A DNA stretch of 37,343 nucleotides, from sequence record OP329100.1, one strand, 5' to 3'. Origin of the DNA: Pseudomonas phage LUZ100. The notes beneath the pieces were generated by a model, which worked only from the letters and a program-made list of their open reading frames with translations, was not told the origin of the DNA and did no database searches. The translations under genes and the position numbers were made by a program. Positions 2,658-22,145 of the stretch are shown here, one piece after another. Each line of letters begins with the position of its first letter. Position 1 is the first letter of the stretch.

Positions 2658-2743
2658 TGGTGCTCGGAGCGGGACTCGAACCCGCAAGACCGTAGGTCGG
2701 AGCATTTTAAGTGCTCTGTGTCTACCAATTTCACCATCCGAGC
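2658..2743 (-). tRNA. tRNA-Leu (anticodon TAA), 86 nt with long variable arm; likely attP core
   Basis: Minus-strand read GCTCGGATGGTGAAATTGGTAGACACAGAGCACTTAAAATGCTCCGACCTACGGTCTTGCGGGTTCGAGTCCCGCTCCGAGCACCA folds with a 7-bp acceptor stem, 3-bp D stem, anticodon loop CTTAAAA, 5-bp T stem GCGGG/CCCGC and CCA. Confidence 0.8.
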
Positions 2744-2755
2744 GAGGAGATACCC

Positions 2756-3829
2756 ATGCCGGTAAAGCCAAGAGGTCGTGGCTTTGAGGCCACAGTTAAC
2801 CACCAAGGGGGGAAGTACCGGAGGCAATTCACAACCCAGGTCGAAGCCGAAGCCTGGGAGAAGGCGACCAAAGCCGCCCTGATGAGGGGCGAGATGGTAT
2901 CAGAAACAACCAACTCTGCCAACGGAAATCCTAGCACTCTCAAGGAGTTGGCTGACTTAACTTACAAGCGATTCTGGCAAGGGCGCCCTGGAGGAGAAAC
3001 GGCCCTACGAAACGCAAAGCAGTGCATCAATATCCTCGGTGAGGGGATGTCCCCAGGCTCAGTAAACGAACAGCGCATCGACGACATGGTGTTCGCCCTA
3101 GAGCAGCTCGGGCTGTTCGACAGTACGATCAACCGCAAGCTCTCCGCTTTGTCCAAGATGCTGACCTTCGCCTATGAGCGGGGCTACATCAGCCGCAAGC
3201 CGAAGATCGAACGCAAGAAAGAACCCCAGAACCGCATCCGCTACTTCGACGAAGCAGAGGAGCAGCTCATCCTGGGAGCCTTCACCCACTTCGGGATGCT
3301 CGACATGGTCGACTTCTGCATCGTTGCAATCGACACCGGTATGCGGGTCGGTGAGATTCTGCGGATCGAAGACCGGGACGTAGCCAATGGGCTGGTGTCC
3401 GTGTGGCGCACGAAGAACGGTAAGGCAAGATCCATCCCGATGACGAAGCGCGTGGCTGAGGTATTGGAACGCCGCTTCAAGGAGGAGCGTCGCCGGATGA
3501 ACACCATCGGCAACGTGAAAGCCTTTGAGGGGTGGAACCACAGCAAGATCCGCACGCTGTGGGATCGAGTGCGCCGTCACCTGAAACTCATGACCGACCC
3601 GCAGTTCGTACCCCATGCAATGCGGCACACCTTCTGCTCCCGGCTGGTTCAGCGTGGAGTGGACATCGTGACGGTCTCGAAGCTGGCCGGTCACAGCTCC
3701 ATCGTAGTCACCATGCGGTACGCTCACCTCGCTCCCGATAGTCTGGCCCATGCCATTCGGAAGCTGGAAGAACCCGCAAAAGATGTAAATCCCCAAGCTC
3801 GACACACGACACAAGTTGTGTCGCGGTAG
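2756..3829 (+). CDS. int: Tyrosine-type site-specific integrase
   Basis: RBS gaggagataccc-ATG at 2756; C-terminal catalytic motifs HAMRHTFCSRLVQRGVDIVTVSKLAGHSSIVVTMRYAHL (H-x-x-R...H...Y); the ORF-track extension from 2711 would overlap the tRNA. Confidence 0.85.
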   Translation: MPVKPRGRGFEATVNHQGGKYRRQFTTQVEAEAWEKATKAALMRGEMVSETTNSANGNPSTLKELADLTYKRFWQGRPGGETALRNAKQCINILGEGMSPGSVNEQRIDDMVFALEQLGLFDSTINRKLSALSKMLTFAYERGYISRKPKIERKKEPQNRIRYFDEAEEQLILGAFTHFGMLDMVDFCIVAIDTGMRVGEILRIEDRDVANGLVSVWRTKNGKARSIPMTKRVAEVLERRFKEERRRMNTIGNVKAFEGWNHSKIRTLWDRVRRHLKLMTDPQFVPHAMRHTFCSRLVQRGVDIVTVSKLAGHSSIVVTMRYAHLAPDSLAHAIRKLEEPAKDVNPQARHTTQVVSR

Positions 3830-11607: not shown

Positions 11608-13404
11608 ATGAAGACCCTTGAGTTCGACTGTGAAACAAACGGGCTGCTACACCAGCTCGACCGCGTCCATTCCCTCGTGATCAAGGACGCAACCACCGGG
11701 GAGCGTGGCTCCTTCGCTGACCAGCCGGGCTACTCGCCCATCAAAGAGGGGCTGGCTTGGCTGATGGAGGCTGACCTTGCGGTTGGTCATAATGTGGTCA
11801 AGTTCGACGTACCTGCGCTGCAGCAGGTCTACCCCTGGTTCGACATCCCGCTCGAACGGCTGCGTGACACTCTGGTACTGACCCGCCTGATCTGGCCGGA
11901 GATCGGTGACCGGGACACCGGCCTGATCCGCAAGGGGAAACTGCCAGGGAAGCTGCGAGGCTCCCACTCCTTGGAAGCCTGGGGCTATCGCCTCGGGGTC
12001 TACAAGGGTGAGTTCGGTAAGACCTCGGACTGGCAGGTCTGGACGCCTGAGATGCAGACGTACTGCGAGCAGGACGTTGAGGTCACCGATGCGCTGTGGA
12101 AGAAGATCCAGTCCAAGGAAGTGGCCGAGCGCGCCGTCGAGCTGGAGCACTGGTTCGCCTTCATCATCGGTCTGCAAGAGCGCCACGGGTTCGCCTTCAA
12201 CACCCAGGCAGCCGCTGCTCTGTACACCACCCTGGTGGCCGAGCGGGAGAAGCTGGACTCGGAACTCAAAGGCGCCTTCCGGCCCTGGTACGTCAACGCC
12301 GGGGTCGTCATGCCCAAGCGCCCGAACCGTACCCAGGGCATCGAGGCCGGGGTTCCGTACTGCAAGGTCACCCTGCAGGAGTTCAACCCAGCCAGCCGAC
12401 TGCAGATCGCTGACCGCCTGACCAAGCTGCACGGCTGGAAACCCCAGGAGTTCACCGATAGTGGCCAGCCCAAGGCCGACGAGACGGTGCTCTCCAAGCT
12501 GCCGTACCCAGCGGCCAAGCTCCTGGCTCGCCGGTTCCTGATCGAGAAGCGCATCGGGCAACTGGCCGAGGGGAACCAGGCTTGGCTCAAGCTGGAGCGC
12601 AAGGGGCGCATCCATGGCTCGGTGAACACCATCGGTGCCGTGACCGGGCGCTGTACCCACAGCCACCCCAACGTCGCCCAGGTGCCGTCAGTCCGCGCCC
12701 CATTCGGCAAGGAGTGTCGGGCACTGTTCGGTGCTGACCCTGGCTACGTCCAGATCGGTGCCGATGCCTCGGGCCTTGAGCTGCGCTGCTTGGCCCACTA
12801 CATGGCGCGGTATGACGGGGGAGCCTACGCCAAGGTTCTGCTCGAAGGTGACATCCACACGGAGAACCAGAAGGCAGCCGGTCTGCCCACTCGGGATAAC
12901 GCGAAGACGTTCATCTACGCCTACCTCTACGGGGCTGGCGACGAGAAGATCGGGCAGATCGTTGGCAAGGGTGCGAAGGAAGGGAAGAAGCTCAAGGAGA
13001 ACTTCCTGAAACGCACCCCCGCATTGAAGCGGCTACGCGAAGACGTTGCGTCAGCCGTGAAAAAGCGGGGCTACCTCGTCGGGATCGACGGGCGACACCT
13101 GCACATCCGATCCGACCACGCCGCCCTCAACACCCTCCTGCAATCAGCCGGTGCCCTGTTGGTTAAACAAGCCACGGTCAACTTGTATCGGGAGCTATCC
13201 ACCCGTGGATACGTCTTCGGCAAGGACTGGGCGATGTTGGCCCACGTTCACGACGAGTACCAGCTCCAGGCCAGGAAGGAGATCGCAGACGAAGTTGCCC
13301 AGGTAGCCGTGTGGGCCTTCCAGCAAGCGGGCCGCGACTTCAACTGGCGGTGCCCCCTGGATGGTGAGGCCAAGACCGGCACGAACTGGGCGGAGTGCCA
13401 CTGA
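11608..13404 (+). CDS. Family A DNA polymerase with 3'-5' exonuclease (T7 gp5-like, compact 598 aa)
   Basis: Exo I LEFDCETNGL; motif A GADASGLELRCLAHY; motif B KTFIYAYLYGAG; motif C HVHDEY. Confidence 0.9.
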   Translation: MKTLEFDCETNGLLHQLDRVHSLVIKDATTGERGSFADQPGYSPIKEGLAWLMEADLAVGHNVVKFDVPALQQVYPWFDIPLERLRDTLVLTRLIWPEIGDRDTGLIRKGKLPGKLRGSHSLEAWGYRLGVYKGEFGKTSDWQVWTPEMQTYCEQDVEVTDALWKKIQSKEVAERAVELEHWFAFIIGLQERHGFAFNTQAAAALYTTLVAEREKLDSELKGAFRPWYVNAGVVMPKRPNRTQGIEAGVPYCKVTLQEFNPASRLQIADRLTKLHGWKPQEFTDSGQPKADETVLSKLPYPAAKLLARRFLIEKRIGQLAEGNQAWLKLERKGRIHGSVNTIGAVTGRCTHSHPNVAQVPSVRAPFGKECRALFGADPGYVQIGADASGLELRCLAHYMARYDGGAYAKVLLEGDIHTENQKAAGLPTRDNAKTFIYAYLYGAGDEKIGQIVGKGAKEGKKLKENFLKRTPALKRLREDVASAVKKRGYLVGIDGRHLHIRSDHAALNTLLQSAGALLVKQATVNLYRELSTRGYVFGKDWAMLAHVHDEYQLQARKEIADEVAQVAVWAFQQAGRDFNWRCPLDGEAKTGTNWAECH

Positions 13405-13616
13405 TGAACCGCAAGACCCTGATCGTCCTGCAGCGAGCCTACATCGAGCCATTCACCGTGCAGAGCAACTACGCACGGGAGAACGCAGTGCGCGTGGCCG
13501 AGCTGGCAAGCCGAGGACTACTGACCACCCATGCTGGCCATGGGCTTTACAGCAAACACTGGCGCGTTACCCCAGCGGGGCGCGCTCTCTTGGAGTACAC
13601 CGGAGGAGAATCCTGA
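13404..13616 (+). CDS. Small hypothetical protein, possible wHTH (70 aa)
   Basis: ATG overlaps DNAP stop (ctgATGa); segment VRVAELASRGLLTT resembles an HTH recognition helix. Confidence 0.45.
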   Translation: MNRKTLIVLQRAYIEPFTVQSNYARENAVRVAELASRGLLTTHAGHGLYSKHWRVTPAGRALLEYTGGES

Positions 13617-13945
13617 TGTTCAAGAACCTGATCGCCACCCTGTTGATCGTTGTCGCCCTGGTCGCTGGCCCGGCCCAAGCCCGTGGCTTCTCGGCACCGG
13701 CTGTCCGTGTTGCCCCTGTGGTTCGCATGGCGCCGACCCCGAAGCCGGTCTACACGCCCAAGCCGCAGGTGGCCCCGCGTTCCACCGCTTCGACCGTCAC
13801 CACCACCAGCTCGACCTCTCGCACCTCCACCGATAGCGGCAGCTCTGCAGTCAGCACCGCCATCACCTGGGGCTTCATCGGCGCCATGCTCGGCTCGACC
13901 TTCGGTGACGACGATGACGAGGAGGAGCAGGAGGACGCCCAGTGA
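13616..13945 (+). CDS. Secreted protein with Sec signal peptide, S/T-rich middle and acidic tail (110 aa)
   Basis: MFKNLIATLLIVVALVAGPAQA|RG signal peptide (AxA site); then PTPKPVYTPKPQ... TSSTSRTSTDSGSS...; C-terminus DDDDEEEQEDAQ. Confidence 0.55.
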   Translation: MFKNLIATLLIVVALVAGPAQARGFSAPAVRVAPVVRMAPTPKPVYTPKPQVAPRSTASTVTTTSSTSRTSTDSGSSAVSTAITWGFIGAMLGSTFGDDDDEEEQEDAQ

Positions 13946-14676
13946 GAGCGCAGTACGTTGACCACATGGGCAGCGACCTGAGCGTGGTGAACGCTGCCCG
14001 CGTGTCCTTCGACAAGGTGTCCCAATGGGAACGCCCGGTGCTGCGGGTCGAGACCTACATCCACCCGCACAACGGCGACGAGATAGAGCACAAGGTACTG
14101 GGCGAGCCGCGCCTCTCCCAGGCCGACTCCAGGCTGATCCGCTACCTCGCCAAGCACGACCACTGGACACCCTTCGCCCACACCAACATCACCCTGCGCA
14201 TGAAAGCTCCGGTGCCGATCCGCACGCAATGCTTCAAGCACAAGCAGGGTCTGGTGGAGAACGAGGAGTCTCGCCGGTACATCAGCTCGACCCCTGAGCT
14301 GTTCGTCCCGTCCGTGTTCCGCAGCAAGCCCGAAGGCTCGGCCAAGCAAGGCTCTGCCGGTGAGCACCCGCGCAGCCATGAGTGGCGCCGGGAGTACCGC
14401 ATGGCTGGCGAGTACGCGATCCGCCTGTACGAGGACATGATCCGTGACGGCGTCTGCCCGGAACAGGCCCGCTTCATCCTGCCGCAAGGCTGCGAGGTGA
14501 ACTGGATCTGGACTGGCAACCTGTACGCCTTCGCCAACTTCTACCTGAAACGCACCGACCCGCACGCCCAGCACGAGATTCAAGTGCTGGCCCAGGAGGT
14601 CGGCTCAATCATCGAACCGCTGTTCCCAGTCTCCTGGGCGGCTTTGACACGTCTGGAGGAATCCACCAGTGGATGA
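13942..14676 (+). CDS. ThyX-like (flavin-dependent thymidylate synthase fold) protein with a divergent active-site motif
   Basis: HWTPFAHTNITL...FKHKQGLVENEESRRY aligns to the ThyX RHRx7SxRY signature (RHR replaced by KHK); ARFILPQGCEVNWIWTGNLYAFANFYLKR matches the ThyX C-terminal AR..LP...NLR.W..F..LR block. Confidence 0.5.
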   Translation: MRAQYVDHMGSDLSVVNAARVSFDKVSQWERPVLRVETYIHPHNGDEIEHKVLGEPRLSQADSRLIRYLAKHDHWTPFAHTNITLRMKAPVPIRTQCFKHKQGLVENEESRRYISSTPELFVPSVFRSKPEGSAKQGSAGEHPRSHEWRREYRMAGEYAIRLYEDMIRDGVCPEQARFILPQGCEVNWIWTGNLYAFANFYLKRTDPHAQHEIQVLAQEVGSIIEPLFPVSWAALTRLEESTSG

Positions 14677-14902
14677 ATTGAACCTTGATCTGAGCGGCAT
14701 CGAAGACCCGGTGACCGCCCGCGTGACCGATCTGATCCGCCTCAGTGAAGCCCTGGACAAGGCCCAGGAGGAAGTCGGCCAGAACGCCTTGAAGGCTGGC
14801 CTAGCGTTCGTGCTGGAAGACCTCAAGCGCGTGGTGTTCCCGCCCGTTGCAGTCCAGGGCGACAACATCATCCCGTTCCCCGGAGGCCGCGATGTCCACT
14901 GA
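14669..14902 (+). CDS. Small acidic hypothetical protein (77 aa, GTG start)
   Basis: GTG start overlapping the ThyX-like stop; no domain recognised. Confidence 0.35.
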   Translation: MDELNLDLSGIEDPVTARVTDLIRLSEALDKAQEEVGQNALKAGLAFVLEDLKRVVFPPVAVQGDNIIPFPGGRDVH

Positions 14903-15674
14903 AACCATCGCACTGATCGACGGCGACATCTTCGCCTATGAGATCGCTGCCGGTGCCGAGGAGCCGATCCACTGGGGTGACGGCCTCTGGACTCTCCATG
15001 CGTGGGAAGACCAGGGCCGACTCCGGGTGGTCGACCGGGTGCATGAGGTGGCCGATGCGATCAACGCCGACCGCATCATCGTGGCCCTGACGGATGACGT
15101 GAACTGGCGCAACTCGGTGCTCCCTTCCTACAAGGAGAACCGGGTCGGCCAGCGCAAGCCGATGATCCTCAAGCCGCTCAAGGAGCAGCTCAAGGAGAGC
15201 TTCGAGACCTTCATCCGTCCGGGCCTGGAGGCTGACGACGTGCTCGGCATCCTCTCCACATGGCCGAAGCTCAAGGGCCGCAAGGTCATCATCACCAAGG
15301 ACAAAGACCTCAAGACCATCCCCGGTCTGCACTTCCACACGCACCGCACCGAGCTGGGTGTGTTCGAGGTCACCGAGCACCAAGCCAACTACCACCACCT
15401 GCAGCAAGCCCTGACCGGCGACATCACCGATGGCTACAAGGGCTGCCCAGGTATCGGCCCGGCCAAGGCCGACAAGATCCTCCTGCCGTTCGCCCACGAG
15501 ACCAAGCACGACCAGTTCTTCGACGTGCAAGGCGCCTGGGAGAAGGTCGTCGAGGCGTTCGCCAAGGCCGGTCTCTCCGAAGAAGAAGCCCTGGTTCAGG
15601 CCCGCGTGGCCCGCATCTGCAGGGCATCCGACTACGACTTCAAGACTAAGAAGGTGAAGCTATGGAATCCGTGA
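14892..15674 (+). CDS. 5'-3' exonuclease (T7 gp6-like, FEN/PIN fold)
   Basis: RBS ccggaggccgcgATG; IDGDIFAYE, GLEADDVLG, ITKDKD, GDITDGYKGCPGIGPAKA (H3TH) motifs. Confidence 0.85.
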   Translation: MSTETIALIDGDIFAYEIAAGAEEPIHWGDGLWTLHAWEDQGRLRVVDRVHEVADAINADRIIVALTDDVNWRNSVLPSYKENRVGQRKPMILKPLKEQLKESFETFIRPGLEADDVLGILSTWPKLKGRKVIITKDKDLKTIPGLHFHTHRTELGVFEVTEHQANYHHLQQALTGDITDGYKGCPGIGPAKADKILLPFAHETKHDQFFDVQGAWEKVVEAFAKAGLSEEEALVQARVARICRASDYDFKTKKVKLWNP

Positions 15675-15982
15675 TCGACATGGTCAACCACCCTGGCCAT
15701 TACAAGGGGAAGCTCGACCCCATGCTTGCCGCTGTACGCGGTGCCCTCGTCGAGGACGTGGACGGCATCAACATCGAGTGCTTCGAGGCCATGGTCTCGA
15801 TGATGACCATCGAGGAGCTGCGCGGTTACCTGCGTGGCAACTCCTTCAAGTACCGCTGGCGTTACCAGAAGAAGGCCGGGATTCAGGACTTGGAGAAGGC
15901 CGAGTGGTACGAGAAGAAGCTGCTGCGCCTGGAGCGTGCGGTGCGTGACTACCTGTTCGCCCAGGAGGACGCAGCAGCATGA
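15662..15982 (+). CDS. DUF3310-like phage protein (VNHPGHY...INIEC motif)
   Basis: N-terminal VNHPGHYKG and IECFEAM resemble the DUF3310 signature common in phage nucleotide-metabolism clusters. Confidence 0.45.
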   Translation: MESVIDMVNHPGHYKGKLDPMLAAVRGALVEDVDGINIECFEAMVSMMTIEELRGYLRGNSFKYRWRYQKKAGIQDLEKAEWYEKKLLRLERAVRDYLFAQEDAAA

Positions 15983-16281
15983 TCGAGAGCCTGGAAACCG
16001 CTGTGATCAAGTGGGCGGAAGACCGGGGCATCTTCGAGAAAGCCACGCCCGCCAGCCAATGGGAGAAGACCCACGAGGAGGTCTTGGAGTTGATCGAGGG
16101 CATCGTCAAGAACGACCGCCGCGAGATCGAGGATGCCATTGGCGACACCGTCGTGACCCTCATCATCCAGGCCCGAATGCACGGGCTGTCCCTCGGTCAG
16201 TGCCTCGCCTCGGCCTACGACCAGATCAAGAACCGAACCGGAAAGATGATCAACGGAGTTTTTGTCAAAGATGCACCTTGA
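15979..16281 (+). CDS. MazG-like nucleotide pyrophosphohydrolase (100 aa)
   Basis: THEEVLELIEGIVKNDRREIEDAIGDTVVTLIIQARMHGLSL matches the MazG EExxE...E..D metal-binding helix pattern. Confidence 0.6.
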   Translation: MIESLETAVIKWAEDRGIFEKATPASQWEKTHEEVLELIEGIVKNDRREIEDAIGDTVVTLIIQARMHGLSLGQCLASAYDQIKNRTGKMINGVFVKDAP

Positions 16282-16392
16282 GACCTACCACGGACTCACC
16301 CTGGACAATGGGCGTGATGCCCGACTGACAGCCCTCGCAGGAGACCTTCTGCGGGGGTTTTATCTTTCTGGGGGTGAGAATGACCCCCGGTC

Positions 16393-16415
16393 AATTACCA
16401 CACAGTCTTGGAGGA
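16393..16415 (+). promoter_or_regulatory. Phage RNAP promoter, family A copy 5 (AATTACCACACAGTCTT|GGAGGA), phi6.5 analogue
   Basis: Family A consensus; followed by an A-rich leader shared with the right-end copy. Confidence 0.6.
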
Positions 16416-16442
16416 CAGGGAAAAAACTCATAGGGATAACTT

Positions 16443-16640
16443 ATGGATCAACTACCTGTGATTCCTAAAGACCTACTTGATGCTCTGGATCAGCGGTTCC
16501 CTGATCGCTGTCCTGAGCCTGAGTGGTCTGATCGTGAAATCTGGATGCGCGTCGGTGAGCGCCGGGTAATCCGGTTGCTCCGTCGCGTGTATGAGCAACA
16601 GCAAGAGAACGTGTTGGAGAACACCCATGTGCTTCGCTAA
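16443..16640 (+). CDS. Small hypothetical protein (65 aa), gp6.5 position
   Basis: First ORF after promoter A5; weak RBS aggga. Confidence 0.4.
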   Translation: MDQLPVIPKDLLDALDQRFPDRCPEPEWSDREIWMRVGERRVIRLLRRVYEQQQENVLENTHVLR

Positions 16641-16830
16641 GACTCCGAAGATGAAGTCCAGCACTCCCGCAGCAGCTCCACCCGCACCGGAGAAATCCGC
16701 TGCTGATGAGCAAGGCGTCCCCGAGAACGAGGACACCAACGTCGCCAAGAAGACCCCGCTGCGGAACAAACTGCGCATTGACCTCGACCGCAACGAGGAG
16801 GAGCGCAAGTTCAGCGGTTACCGCGTCTGA
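16627..16830 (+). CDS. T7 gp6.7-like small virion protein (67 aa)
   Basis: N-terminus MCFAKTPKMKSS parallels T7 gp6.7 MCFSPKIKTPKM; overlaps the previous gene. Confidence 0.55.
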   Translation: MCFAKTPKMKSSTPAAAPPAPEKSAADEQGVPENEDTNVAKKTPLRNKLRIDLDRNEEERKFSGYRV

Positions 16831-16837
16831 GGTAGCC

Positions 16838-17290
16838 GTGTTCATCCCCCAGTATCTGCGCCTGGATGCTGGAACCCCAACCCCACTGACCCGTGAGCAG
16901 ATCGAGCCGACCGTTCGGGAGGCCATGAAGCTCTACTTCGACATCCACAAGGCCGACTACGGCCAGTGGCTACTGTCCGCAGACGAAGCTGCAGAGGTCT
17001 CCCTTCGAGACCACCACATCGCCCTCATCAACTCCGACTACCTGATCGGCTACTCGAAAGCCTCCGAGTGGTACGCCCGTGGCTTCGTGCTCACCGAGGA
17101 GTACCTGCTTCGCGTAGGGACTGGGAGCACCCGGTTGTCCGAGGTGTTCGAGGTGATGAAGACCTTCGCGCTGCTCCACGGGGCAAGGGGTTGTGAGTTC
17201 GGCACACGCGCAGCCAGCAACAAAGCGGCCATCCGACGGCTTTACGCCCGGCATGGCCTGACCGAAACCATGACTGTGATGAGGTGTTAA
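16838..17290 (+). CDS. GNAT-fold putative acetyltransferase (about 150 aa, GTG start) at the gp7 position
   Basis: RBS tgaggtagccGTG; C-terminal HGARGCEFGTRAASNKAAIRRLYARHGL resembles GNAT motif A and the A..LY.k.GF strand. Confidence 0.4.
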   Translation: MFIPQYLRLDAGTPTPLTREQIEPTVREAMKLYFDIHKADYGQWLLSADEAAEVSLRDHHIALINSDYLIGYSKASEWYARGFVLTEEYLLRVGTGSTRLSEVFEVMKTFALLHGARGCEFGTRAASNKAAIRRLYARHGLTETMTVMRC

Positions 17291-19295: not shown

Positions 19296-20072
19296 ATGGC
19301 TGAAGTCCTGAACACCCAAGGCACCCCGAACAGCGAAGCCCCGGCTGGCCACGATGCAGCCATGGCCGCTGCAGTTGACCAGAAGAACGCCGAGCTGGCG
19401 AACCTGGGCAACGACGCGCCGAAACCGCAAGAGCCTCTGCTGGGCAAGTTCCAGTCCGTCGACGATCTGGCCAAGGCGTATCAGGAGCTGGAGCGCAAGC
19501 TGGGCCAGAAGCCCCAGGAACCGGCCAAGCCGGATGTCACCGACATGACCCCCGAGAAACTCGACGAGCTGGCCCAGAAGAACGGCTTCGACATCGAGGA
19601 GATGTCCAGCTTCTACGAGGCCAACGGCGGTCTGTCCGAAGACCACTACGCCCAACTGGAGAAGGCTGGCATCCCGCGTGCCTACGTCGACCAGTACATC
19701 GCTGGCGTGGAAGCTGAGGCCGAGCGCGCCCGTGATGCCATCTTCCAAGAGGTCGGCGGCGAGCAAGCCTTCCAGGCCATGTCGCAGTGGGCACTGGCCA
19801 ACCTGAGCAAGGAAGACCTGAACCGCTACAACCTTGCTGTCGAGAGCGGCGACATGGACACCGTGCGCAGTGCCGTGATGTCCCTGGCGTACCGCTACCA
19901 GAAGGCAGTCGGCTCCGATCCGAAGCTGGTCAATGGCCAGAACGGTGGCGGTGCCGGTGGTTATGAGTCCCTGGCTCAACTGACCGCAGCAATGCAAGAC
20001 CCCCGCTATGAGAAAGACCCGGCCTACCGCCGCGAGGTAGAGGCCCGTCTGGCTCGTTCCAACATCTTCTGA
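19296..20072 (+). CDS. Capsid assembly (scaffolding) protein, T7 gp9-like
   Basis: RBS agaggagaaccaaATG; acidic, helical, LLGKFQSVDDLAKAYQELERKLG; position between portal and capsid. Confidence 0.8.
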   Translation: MAEVLNTQGTPNSEAPAGHDAAMAAAVDQKNAELANLGNDAPKPQEPLLGKFQSVDDLAKAYQELERKLGQKPQEPAKPDVTDMTPEKLDELAQKNGFDIEEMSSFYEANGGLSEDHYAQLEKAGIPRAYVDQYIAGVEAEAERARDAIFQEVGGEQAFQAMSQWALANLSKEDLNRYNLAVESGDMDTVRSAVMSLAYRYQKAVGSDPKLVNGQNGGGAGGYESLAQLTAAMQDPRYEKDPAYRREVEARLARSNIF

Positions 20073-20830: not shown

Positions 20831-20906
20831 TGGCATGTAGCTCAGATGGTAGAGCACCCGGCTGTTAACCGGGCGGTCGCAGGTTCGAGTCCTGCCGTGC
20901 CAGCCA
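20831..20906 (+). tRNA. tRNA-Asn (anticodon GTT), 76 nt
   Basis: TGGCATGTAGCTCAGATGGTAGAGCACCCGGCTGTTAACCGGGCGGTCGCAGGTTCGAGTCCTGCCGTGCCAGCCA: cloverleaf with 7-bp acceptor stem (one G-U), anticodon loop CTGTTAA, T-loop TTCGAGT, CCA end. Confidence 0.85.
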
Positions 20907-21191: not shown

Positions 21192-22145
21192 ATGGCTGAC
21201 GCTATCGTTTCGCGTCTGGGTCAGATCAACGGCAGCGGCGCTGTCGATGCTCTGTTCCTGAAAGTGTTTGCTGGTGAAGTTCTGACCAGCTTCGAGAAGA
21301 CCAACGTGATGATGGGCAAGCACCAAGTGCGAACCATCGCCAACGGCAAGTCTGCTCAATTCCCGGTAATGGGCCGCGCGAGCGCCTACTACCACACTCC
21401 GGGCCAGGAGATTCTGGGCGGCACCCTGAAGCACGCCGAGAAGATCATCACCATTGATGAACTCCTGATCGCGCCGACCTTCATCGCCAACATCGACGAG
21501 GCGAAGAACCACTACGACGTTCGCTCGGTTTACACCCGCGAGATGGGTGCCAAGCTGGCGAACACCATGGACAAGCACATCCTGCAAACTGGTGTGCTGG
21601 CTGCCCGTACCGCCAAGACCATCAACGACCCGGATCAGTTCGGTGGCACCACCATCAACAACGTGGCCGCTGATAACGGCGATGCCCTGGCAGACGCCAT
21701 GTTCGAGGCTGCTCGCATCCTCGACGAGAAGGACGTTCCGGCTGACGAGCGGTACCTGTTCGTGCGCCCGGCTCAGTTCTACGCCCTGGCGAAGTCGACC
21801 AAGGTTCTGAACCGCGACTGGGGTGGCGAAGGTTCTTACGCTGGCGGCAACGTGATCCGCGTTGCTGGCATCACCATCGTCAAGACCAACAACCTGCCGA
21901 ACACCGTTGTCGCTGCAGGTTCCCTGGACGCTGGCACTGGCGACAAGTACGCCGGTGACTTCTCCAAGACTGTCGGTCTGGTGATGCACCCGTCGGCAAT
22001 CGGCACTGTGAAGCTGCTCGACCTGGGCATGGAGTCCGAGTACCAGATCAGCCGTCAGGGCACCCTGATGGTTGCTAAGTACGCGGTCGGCCACGGCGTT
22101 CTGCGCCCGGAAGCTGCAGTGGAACTGTCCACCGCTGTTGCGTAA
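21192..22145 (+). CDS. Major capsid protein, T7 gp10A-like
   Basis: LFLKVFAGEVLTSFEKT, GKSAQFPVMGR, HAEKIITIDELL, NHYDVRSVYT, GHGVLRPEAA collinear with T7 gp10A. Confidence 0.95.
   Translation: MADAIVSRLGQINGSGAVDALFLKVFAGEVLTSFEKTNVMMGKHQVRTIANGKSAQFPVMGRASAYYHTPGQEILGGTLKHAEKIITIDELLIAPTFIANIDEAKNHYDVRSVYTREMGAKLANTMDKHILQTGVLAARTAKTINDPDQFGGTTINNVAADNGDALADAMFEAARILDEKDVPADERYLFVRPAQFYALAKSTKVLNRDWGGEGSYAGGNVIRVAGITIVKTNNLPNTVVAAGSLDAGTGDKYAGDFSKTVGLVMHPSAIGTVKLLDLGMESEYQISRQGTLMVAKYAVGHGVLRPEAAVELSTAVA

Follow-up and report, generated by a model that had tools for sequence, protein, structure and literature searches.

The closest described counterpart of the protein considered here, the product of a thyX-like gene of Pseudomonas phage LUZ100 (sequence record OP329100.1; the whole stretch of 37,343 nucleotides that was analysed is called the window), is the flavin-dependent thymidylate synthase (FDTS, or ThyX) of Thermotoga maritima (TM0449; PDB 1kq4 and 1o26). 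In structures of the T. maritima enzyme H53, Q75, E86, S88, R90, Y91, E144, R147 and R174 serve deoxyuridine monophosphate (dUMP) binding or activation and folate stacking, and the mutants H53D, R90A, Y91F, E144R and R174K exist as PDB entries. Antibacterial agents directed at ThyX are being sought, and the mechanism of the enzyme's flavin relay is still being worked out. The signature of the family, RHR-x7-S, is that of Myllykallio 2002 as quoted in PMC2826268. Its RHR triad mainly hydrogen-bonds the adenosine monophosphate (AMP) phosphate, the flavin mononucleotide (FMN) phosphate and the ribityl chain of flavin adenine dinucleotide (FAD), and the first Arg also touches the isoalloxazine ring (PMC6514825). 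A further Arg (R190 in Mycobacterium tuberculosis, equivalent to R165 in both Helicobacter pylori and T. maritima) contacts the FAD phosphate from a second subunit (PMC6514825).

Phages carry ThyX as well. Gp48 of mycobacteriophages D29 and L5 is encoded beside replication and ribonucleotide reductase (RNR) genes; the D29 protein is canonical (E58, RHR-x7-SQRY, R165) and only distantly related to that of LUZ100. ThyX activity was reportedly described for L5 gp48 by Bhattacharya et al. in 2008. A homologue with a shifted substrate is represented by PDB 4p5a, which we take to be PolB, the uridine monophosphate (UMP)/dUMP C5-methylase of polyoxin biosynthesis, and a chain of which matches the LUZ100 protein at E = 2.3e-13. 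PolB has the ThyX fold with the substrate changed from dUMP to UMP, is much more distant from the LUZ100 protein than is T. maritima ThyX, and belongs to Streptomyces secondary metabolism, whereas the LUZ100 gene is part of a phage replication module.

The LUZ100 gene (13942-14676, + strand, as are all features below unless stated otherwise) encodes 244 amino acid residues between a GTG start and a TGA stop. Its product is most likely a functional FDTS, converting dUMP to deoxythymidine monophosphate (dTMP) for phage replication. It carries KHK in place of RHR and is a member of what is here called the SRRY type of phage ThyX.

Family membership, fold and selection

The LUZ100 protein belongs to the ThyX/Thy1 family by profile, by fold and by its substrate-site residues, and its homology to ThyX is beyond any doubt. 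Pfam PF02511 (Thy1) matched residues 6-230 over profile positions 3-191 of 191 (E = 1.6e-38; 132.9 bits against a cut-off of 24.8). The NCBIfam equivalog TIGR02170 (thyX) scored 116.8 bits, above its curated cut-off of 87.9, and PHROG_85 (thymidylate synthase) matched at E = 7e-63. T. maritima ThyX (1kq4) was matched at E = 1.3e-23 with approximately 30% identity in the HMMER alignment. An AlphaFold2 (AF2) model was built from 121 input sequences, with a mean predicted local distance difference test score (pLDDT) of 84.3 and a predicted template modelling score (pTM) of 0.76. When it was compared with the PDB using Foldseek, all of the top 50 matches were T. maritima ThyX chains (probability 1.00), with TM scores of 0.68-0.72 normalised to the query and 0.77-0.81 normalised to the target. 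Pseudomonas proteins of 80% identity are named "FAD-dependent thymidylate synthase" by NCBI. The gene is an ordinary phage thyX that standard annotation pipelines already name correctly, an auxiliary nucleotide-metabolism gene of little significance on its own.

A GGAGGA sequence stands just ahead of the GTG start, which overlaps the stop of the upstream open reading frame (ORF) as GTGA. Alignment reveals an N-terminus common to the homologues, MK/MR-A-E/Q-Y-(V/I)-D-H-M-G, and this, together with the overlapping stop, supports the start at 13942. The ratio of nonsynonymous to synonymous substitution rates (dN/dS) ranges from 0.17 to 0.56 against six relatives, and 62 alignment columns are invariant across 121 sequences, every substrate-binding position included. 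The gene is under purifying selection and alive. No second ThyX or ThyA homologue was found in the window, where tblastn with a hand-entered E. coli ThyA sequence gave a best E of 2.7.

These data bear upon the idea that the gene is an inactive or decaying remnant carried along by the phage. The literal RHR has been lost, and RNR genes that stand near thyX in the closest relatives are not present in the window, which would be in keeping with decay. The ORF is nevertheless intact, with its start overlapping the upstream stop; dN/dS is well below 1; the invariant columns take in the whole substrate site; and the subfamily numbers thousands of sequences. An inactive remnant was rejected on dN/dS and conservation, and we regard it as scarcely credible.

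The SRRY signature and the flavin site

Residue equivalences were taken from the HMMER alignment to T. maritima ThyX and from a MAFFT alignment of 246 sequences, 243 of them members of the clade. The signature region of the LUZ100 protein reads K99-H100-K101-QGLVENEE-S110-R111-R112-Y113 (14236-14280), with K99-H100-K101 (14236-14244) equivalent to T. maritima R78-H79-R80 and S110-R111-R112-Y113 (14269-14280) to S88-G89-R90-Y91; the spacer between triad and Ser has eight residues against seven in the canonical RHR-x7-SxRY. Upstream, H74-W-T-P-F-A-H80 (14161-14181) corresponds to H53-E-T-P-F-E58-H59 of T. maritima, H53 being kept and E58 replaced by Ala (A79). Downstream, A176-R177-F-I-L-P181 (14467-14484) holds the R147 equivalent, an Arg in 243 of 243 sequences, and K203-R204-T-D-P-H208-A-Q210 (14548-14571) holds those of R174 (Arg in 242 of 243) and H178.

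The substrate site is therefore readily recognised, its equivalents in LUZ100 being H74, Q96, E108, S110, R112, Y113, E174, R177 and R204. T. maritima residues kept in the phage protein are H53, Q75, E86, S88, R90, Y91, E144, R147, N163, N169, R174 and H178. The equivalents of H53, Q75, E86, S88, R90, Y91, R147 and R174 vary little or not at all among the 243 clade members, and that of E144 is kept in all 12 sequences of a smaller comparison (LUZ100, T. maritima and ten cultured phages). The differences lie elsewhere: besides KHK and the longer spacer, E58 is replaced by Ala, G89 by Arg, R165 by Tyr and L173 by Lys, while R74 has become Thr with an Arg one position earlier. Two segments have no counterpart in T. 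maritima ThyX. One is a hypervariable insertion of 34 residues (residues 26-59; 14017-14118), placed after the first strand-helix unit and predicted to form a β-hairpin, the AF2 secondary structure having putative strands at 34-40 and 47-53. The other is a clade-specific, invariant loop, K135-Q136-G137-S138 (14344-14355). At the site of the 34-residue insertion one relative (P0023) has a CxxC-bearing segment and another (P0119) an extra domain of approximately 70 residues; in two others (P0140 and P0169) a Cys-rich, HNH-like insertion of approximately 170 residues follows the KQGS loop.

Across the clade five of the altered positions switch together (T. maritima numbering): E58 to A or R, R78 to K, R80 to variable residues, G89 to R, and R165 to Y, L or A. 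The R165 position, Y195 in LUZ100, is Y in 153, A in 41, L in 11, M in nine and F in eight of the 243 members. Conserved basic residues new to the clade are R111 (G89 position), K203 (L173 position) and often an Arg at the E58 position. The simplest reading is that in the SRRY branch the flavin cradle, with its flavin-phosphate contacts, would have been re-wired and the substrate site left untouched; the branch has apparently never been characterised. An earlier note on this DNA, made from the sequence alone, had placed the gene exactly, in agreement with its start, its stop and the N-termini of homologues. It had also recognised a ThyX fold, on which profile search and AF2/Foldseek (TM 0.7-0.8) now agree, and a KHK triad with shifted spacing in place of RHR, which the alignments bear out. 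The note had further taken RHR to bind the phosphate of dUMP; this is not the main role of the triad, which contacts the AMP and FMN phosphates and the ribityl of FAD (PMC6514825).

The SRRY type was defined by the pattern [KR]-[HS]-x-x-G-x(4 or more)-[NS]-E-x-S-R-R-Y with a non-acidic residue at E58 and a non-basic one at R165. LUZ100 fits it with FKHKQGLVENEESRRY, A79 and Y195. Since the RHR-x7-S and the R165 of canonical ThyX are both absent, the protein is filed with the SRRY-type subfamily of the wider ThyX family and not with the canonical enzymes, to which every ThyX characterised biochemically or structurally belongs. The 12 compared sequences fall cleanly into two types. The canonical one comprises T. 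maritima, mycobacteriophage D29 gp48, Bixzunavirus Atlantean, cyanophages S-ESS1 and ACG-2014b, and Pseudomonas phage PAJD-1, and shows E58, RHR, S-[G/Q/A]-R-Y and R or H at 165. The SRRY type comprises LUZ100, the N4-like Klebsiella phage KpCHEMY26, a phiEco32-like Kuravirus, Vibrio phage KIT05, Yersinia phage PYps16T (Chaseviridae) and Streptomyces phage Anedea, and shows A or R at 58, K at 78, H or Y at 79, K, Q or V at 80, S-R-R-Y, and Y, L or A at 165. The proteins of KpCHEMY26, the Kuravirus, PYps16T and KIT05 share their signature with that of LUZ100 (KHK or KHQ followed by SRRY; Y or L for R165) at 36-57% identity, and those of the Rheinheimera Barba and Pseudomonas PMBT3 phages, compared by identity only, reach 55-57%. 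These six phages have backbones unlike the temperate T7-like genome of LUZ100.

In wider searches the KHK-x8-SRRY arrangement held without exception in the 120 database proteins closest to that of LUZ100 (57-93% identity). An exhaustive search of 1.84 billion cluster representatives at 50% identity gave 6,390 clusters resembling ThyX at E ≤ 0.001, of which 455 reached E ≤ 1e-30. Within the part of the 150 best representatives that could be aligned, the triad was KHK in 37, KHQ in 35 and KHT in nine, with RHT, KHM, KHV, KSx, RSx and others being rarer; V/I-G...N-E-x-SRRY nearly always followed. No clade member of the 246-sequence alignment has RHR, which is confined there to the added references, T. 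maritima and D29. Judged from these sequences, the KHK motif is shared across a large ThyX subfamily borne by phages and is not peculiar to the LUZ100 gene; the textbook RHRx7S signature fails to describe this branch. Among 185,579 species-representative genomes only 23, dispersed over unrelated bacteria, contained the KHK-type pattern, and this rarity and scatter place the type in phages and prophages, not among cellular housekeeping genes.

In several relatives inteins interrupt the signature itself (FFKHKVGF|CLSGD...VVHN|CENEVSRRY; KHKVGLVENE|C...NGN|CSRRY), a location that is usually the sign of a functionally critical site. The cluster representatives with such inteins are P0137, P0145, P0147, P0157 and P0173; in P0157 the intein lies at the HxxPFxH motif. 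The most extreme motif variant among those compared is Anedea gene 23 (2992-3645 of locus L010), which has K-Y-V for RHR, so that the His is lost, a spacer of 15 residues and Glu at the H53 equivalent, and which keeps SRRY, R147 and R174. A metagenome protein from ENA (P0224; 465 residues) has an SRRY-type ThyX domain with PLVGIETNPGP on both sides. This sequence resembles 2A-like ribosome-skipping sites and suggests that a phage-type ThyX may here be part of a polyprotein of a eukaryote or a eukaryotic virus.

The joint change of E58, R78, R80, G89 and R165 also raises the question whether the cofactor is handled in a materially different way, with the same dUMP to dTMP chemistry but with FMN or another flavin, another pose of FAD or another reductant. 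RHR and R165 are the positions for which FAD phosphate and ribityl contacts are on record; conserved basic residues have appeared at R111, at K203 and, in many members, at the E58 position; and the KQGS loop is both invariant and specific to the clade. On the other hand, K99 retains the positive charge of the R78 position, the overall ThyX fold is kept in the AF2 model, and the compensating arginines may do no more than bring back the original contacts to FAD. Such a change in cofactor handling strikes us as quite improbable. The broader proposition that the SRRY type is a functionally distinct, phage-specific third flavour of thymidylate synthase, differing in flavin form or pose, in reductant or by a product other than dTMP, would be unlikely, if somewhat less so.

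A functional FDTS is the reading we favour for the LUZ100 protein, and several points weigh against it. The literal RHR-x7-S is replaced by KHK-x8-S. The Arg equivalents of R80 and R165, reported binders of the FAD phosphate, are lost, so that cofactor binding, and possibly kinetics or the identity of the cofactor, may differ. The solved ThyX structures among the matches are all of the canonical type, and no SRRY-type ThyX characterised biochemically, genetically or structurally was found in the literature, although Liu & Yang 2004 may already describe the variant. The words "distinctive ThyX motifs" in the title of that paper suggest an early awareness of variant motifs, and an "extended ThyX motif" that is possibly relevant is reportedly treated by Ulmer et al. 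2008. Finally, Pseudomonas-type hosts are expected to own ThyA already, and the benefit of a phage thyX is therefore assumed.

As to catalysis, oligomeric state, cofactor identity and the role in deoxythymidine triphosphate (dTTP) supply, we infer the following course. The protein would form the usual ThyX homotetramer. A bound flavin, reduced by NAD(P)H, would take the methylene of methylenetetrahydrofolate (CH2H4folate) at N5 and hand it to C5 of dUMP, held by the equivalents S110, R112, R177 and R204, and a final reduction would yield dTMP. The supply of dTMP would in this way be topped up during phage DNA synthesis, alongside RNR and nucleotide kinases of host or phage origin, and MazG may serve as a pool-sanitising pyrophosphohydrolase. 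ThyX being a drug target with an unsettled flavin-relay mechanism, comparison with a naturally occurring enzyme whose flavin cradle differs would be useful.

Gene neighbourhood and DNA hypermodification

The replication module of LUZ100 reads primase-helicase, PolA, two small ORFs, thyX, a 77-residue ORF, 5′-3′ exonuclease, DUF3310 and MazG. The family A DNA polymerase (PolA; 11608-13404) lies upstream of thyX, its syntenic genes in loci L002 and L004 carrying PF00476. The exonuclease (14892-15674) is T7 gp6-like (Pfam PF02739, E = 4.5e-11; PHROG_107, E = 4.5e-61). The DUF3310 protein (15662-15982; Pfam, E = 1e-12) also matches PHROGs labelled "nucleotide kinase" (E = 1.5e-17) and resembles the C-terminal third of T7 gp1.7, with BLASTP to residues 133-185 at E = 2e-10. 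A bona fide nucleotide kinase was rejected for this protein; as the match is confined to the C-terminal 50 or so residues of gp1.7, it is termed gp1.7-like with no kinase activity claimed. The last gene of the module encodes a MazG-like nucleotide pyrophosphohydrolase (15979-16281; Pfam PF03819, E = 3.3e-6; PHROG_1992, E = 4.7e-33).

The nearest ThyX relatives (80-93% identity) are found on uncultured contigs and in a prophage of Pseudomonas kilonensis. The two closest loci, a metagenomic contig (93%) and the integrated prophage of P. kilonensis GCA_040544595.1 (approximately 81%), both have the LUZ100 gene order plus the large and small subunits of a class I RNR directly after MazG. The RNR region occupies 12279-14998 in L002 and 6810-9532 in L004, and its counterpart in the window (16281-17290) consists of unmatched small ORFs. 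The RNR has either been lost in LUZ100 or gained in the relatives.

A survey of viral neighbourhoods covered 80 contigs with a KHK-type gene, 10 kb on either side. PolA was present at 43 of these loci, the RNR large subunit at 37, the 5′-3′ exonuclease at 35 and the RNR small subunit at 26; ThyA, the fold of the known hydroxymethylases, was found by tblastn with the E. coli protein at none of the 80 within this distance. When two flanking ORFs per side were considered at 39 non-redundant loci, the neighbours were RNR (11), glutaredoxin (11), 5′-3′ exonuclease (eight), RNR small subunit (five), PolA (five), dUTPase (three) and PhoH (three). The 25 commonest neighbour families of KHK-type thyX included no recognisable DNA-modification gene. 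In phiEco32-like phages thyX of the SRRY type lies near genes for dCTP deaminase and thioredoxin, and in KpCHEMY26 it directly follows PolA. The neighbourhood is a standard dTTP-supply set and not a hypermodification pathway.

Hypermodifying phages also carry kinases, transferases or glucosyltransferases, and none of these was identified in the window or among the 25 commonest neighbour families. Known pathways of thymidine hypermodification begin with a ThyA-fold hydroxymethylase (PMC8989533). Such dUMP or dCMP hydroxymethylases (T4 gp42, SPO1 gp29 and those of the M6/ViI pathway) are likewise phage-encoded and folate-dependent and act on C5 of pyrimidine nucleotides, and they supply the analogy behind the hypermodification idea of the earlier note; their fold is that of ThyA, however, and unrelated to the ThyX of LUZ100. 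Pfam and PHROG annotation of the window, in which several small ORFs match no family, recognised no DNA-modification enzyme; the accessory genes considered were those for 5-hydroxymethyldeoxyuridine (5-hmdU) DNA kinase, glycosyl- or aminoacyl-transferases, and pyridoxal phosphate (PLP) or radical S-adenosylmethionine (SAM) enzymes. Apart from the unmatched small ORFs, all that this annotation showed were T7-like genes for replication, lysis and structure.

The earlier note had gone from the altered motif to a hypermodification enzyme. In its full form this holds that the ThyX fold has been neofunctionalised to make a modified pyrimidine nucleotide, as a 5-hydroxymethyl-dUMP synthase or a dCMP or UMP methylase, and serves hypermodification together with MazG. 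The altered RHR and the spacer, one residue longer, lend this some colour, as do the nearby MazG pyrophosphohydrolase gene and the failure to find an SRRY-type member of characterised activity in the literature. Water or another nucleophile could, in principle, also intercept the exocyclic methylene intermediate of ThyX (for the mechanism, PMC8989533). The contacts to the base, sugar and phosphate of dUMP and the folate-stacking His are all kept, however, and it is among the changed positions that the documented flavin contacts are found. Neither a ThyA-fold hydroxymethylase nor a recognisable DNA-modifying enzyme was identified in the window, several small ORFs of which match no family; the neighbours RNR, glutaredoxin and dUTPase are standard partners of the dTTP pathway; and many groups of phages that are routinely sequenced, the N4-like and phiEco32-like phages included, have this ThyX type. 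The inference to hypermodification finds no support, because KH[K/Q/x]...SRRY is present in all 120 of the closest homologues, in nearly all of the 150 cluster representatives and in many cultured phages whose ThyX is annotated as a matter of routine, and we consider neofunctionalisation highly improbable. Clade-wide sharing should be checked before a deviating motif is taken as neofunctionalisation. MazG and DUF3310 genes do lie within 1.3 kb downstream of thyX, as had been stated (Pfam and PHROG matches), and the nucleotide-pool cluster proposed on that basis stands as one of ordinary deoxynucleotide (dNTP) supply; its hypermodification part is unsupported, no modification gene having been identified.

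A different pairing is seen in Synechococcus virus S-ESS1, where the gene for a canonical, RHR-type ThyX (217-1281 of locus L117) is followed at once by one annotated as dihydrofolate reductase. The ThyX reaction does not yield dihydrofolate, which makes the pairing odd.

Other features of the LUZ100 window

The window holds nearly the whole genome of a temperate T7-like phage, whose genes all lie on the + strand. The left, or early, part encodes tRNA-Leu, a tyrosine integrase, a single-subunit RNA polymerase, a gp2.5-like single-stranded DNA-binding protein, endonuclease I and an amidase; the late genes are those for portal, scaffold, capsid, tail, internal virion proteins, tail fibre and terminase. 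No close cultured relative was found by megablast of 12 kb around thyX against cultured phages, where the matches were confined to short patches in T7-like phages of Rhizobium, Limnohabitans, Ralstonia and Pseudomonas.

Immediately upstream of thyX, and with its stop overlapping the thyX start, is an ORF of 109 residues (13616-13945) with a hydrophobic N-terminus (MFKNLIATLLIVVALVAGPAQA), a middle rich in Pro and in Ser/Thr, and an acidic DDDDEEEQED tail. It has no family match in Pfam or PHROG. It is not present in the P. kilonensis prophage, and an ORF of 86 residues stands at the equivalent place in L004.

The tRNA-Leu(taa) gene (2658-2743, - strand) adjoins, with a slight overlap, the 5′ end of the tyrosine integrase ORF (2711-3829, + strand; PHROG_1, E = 3e-55), and this layout looks like the attachment site of a T7-like temperate phage or prophage. 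To the left of tRNA-Leu, 2.6 kb contain only unmatched small ORFs, except for a transcriptional-regulator-like ORF of 109 residues (2321-2650). A tRNA-Asn(gtt) gene (20831-20906, + strand) lies within the structural module, between the genes for the scaffold (19296-20072) and the major capsid protein (21192-22145).

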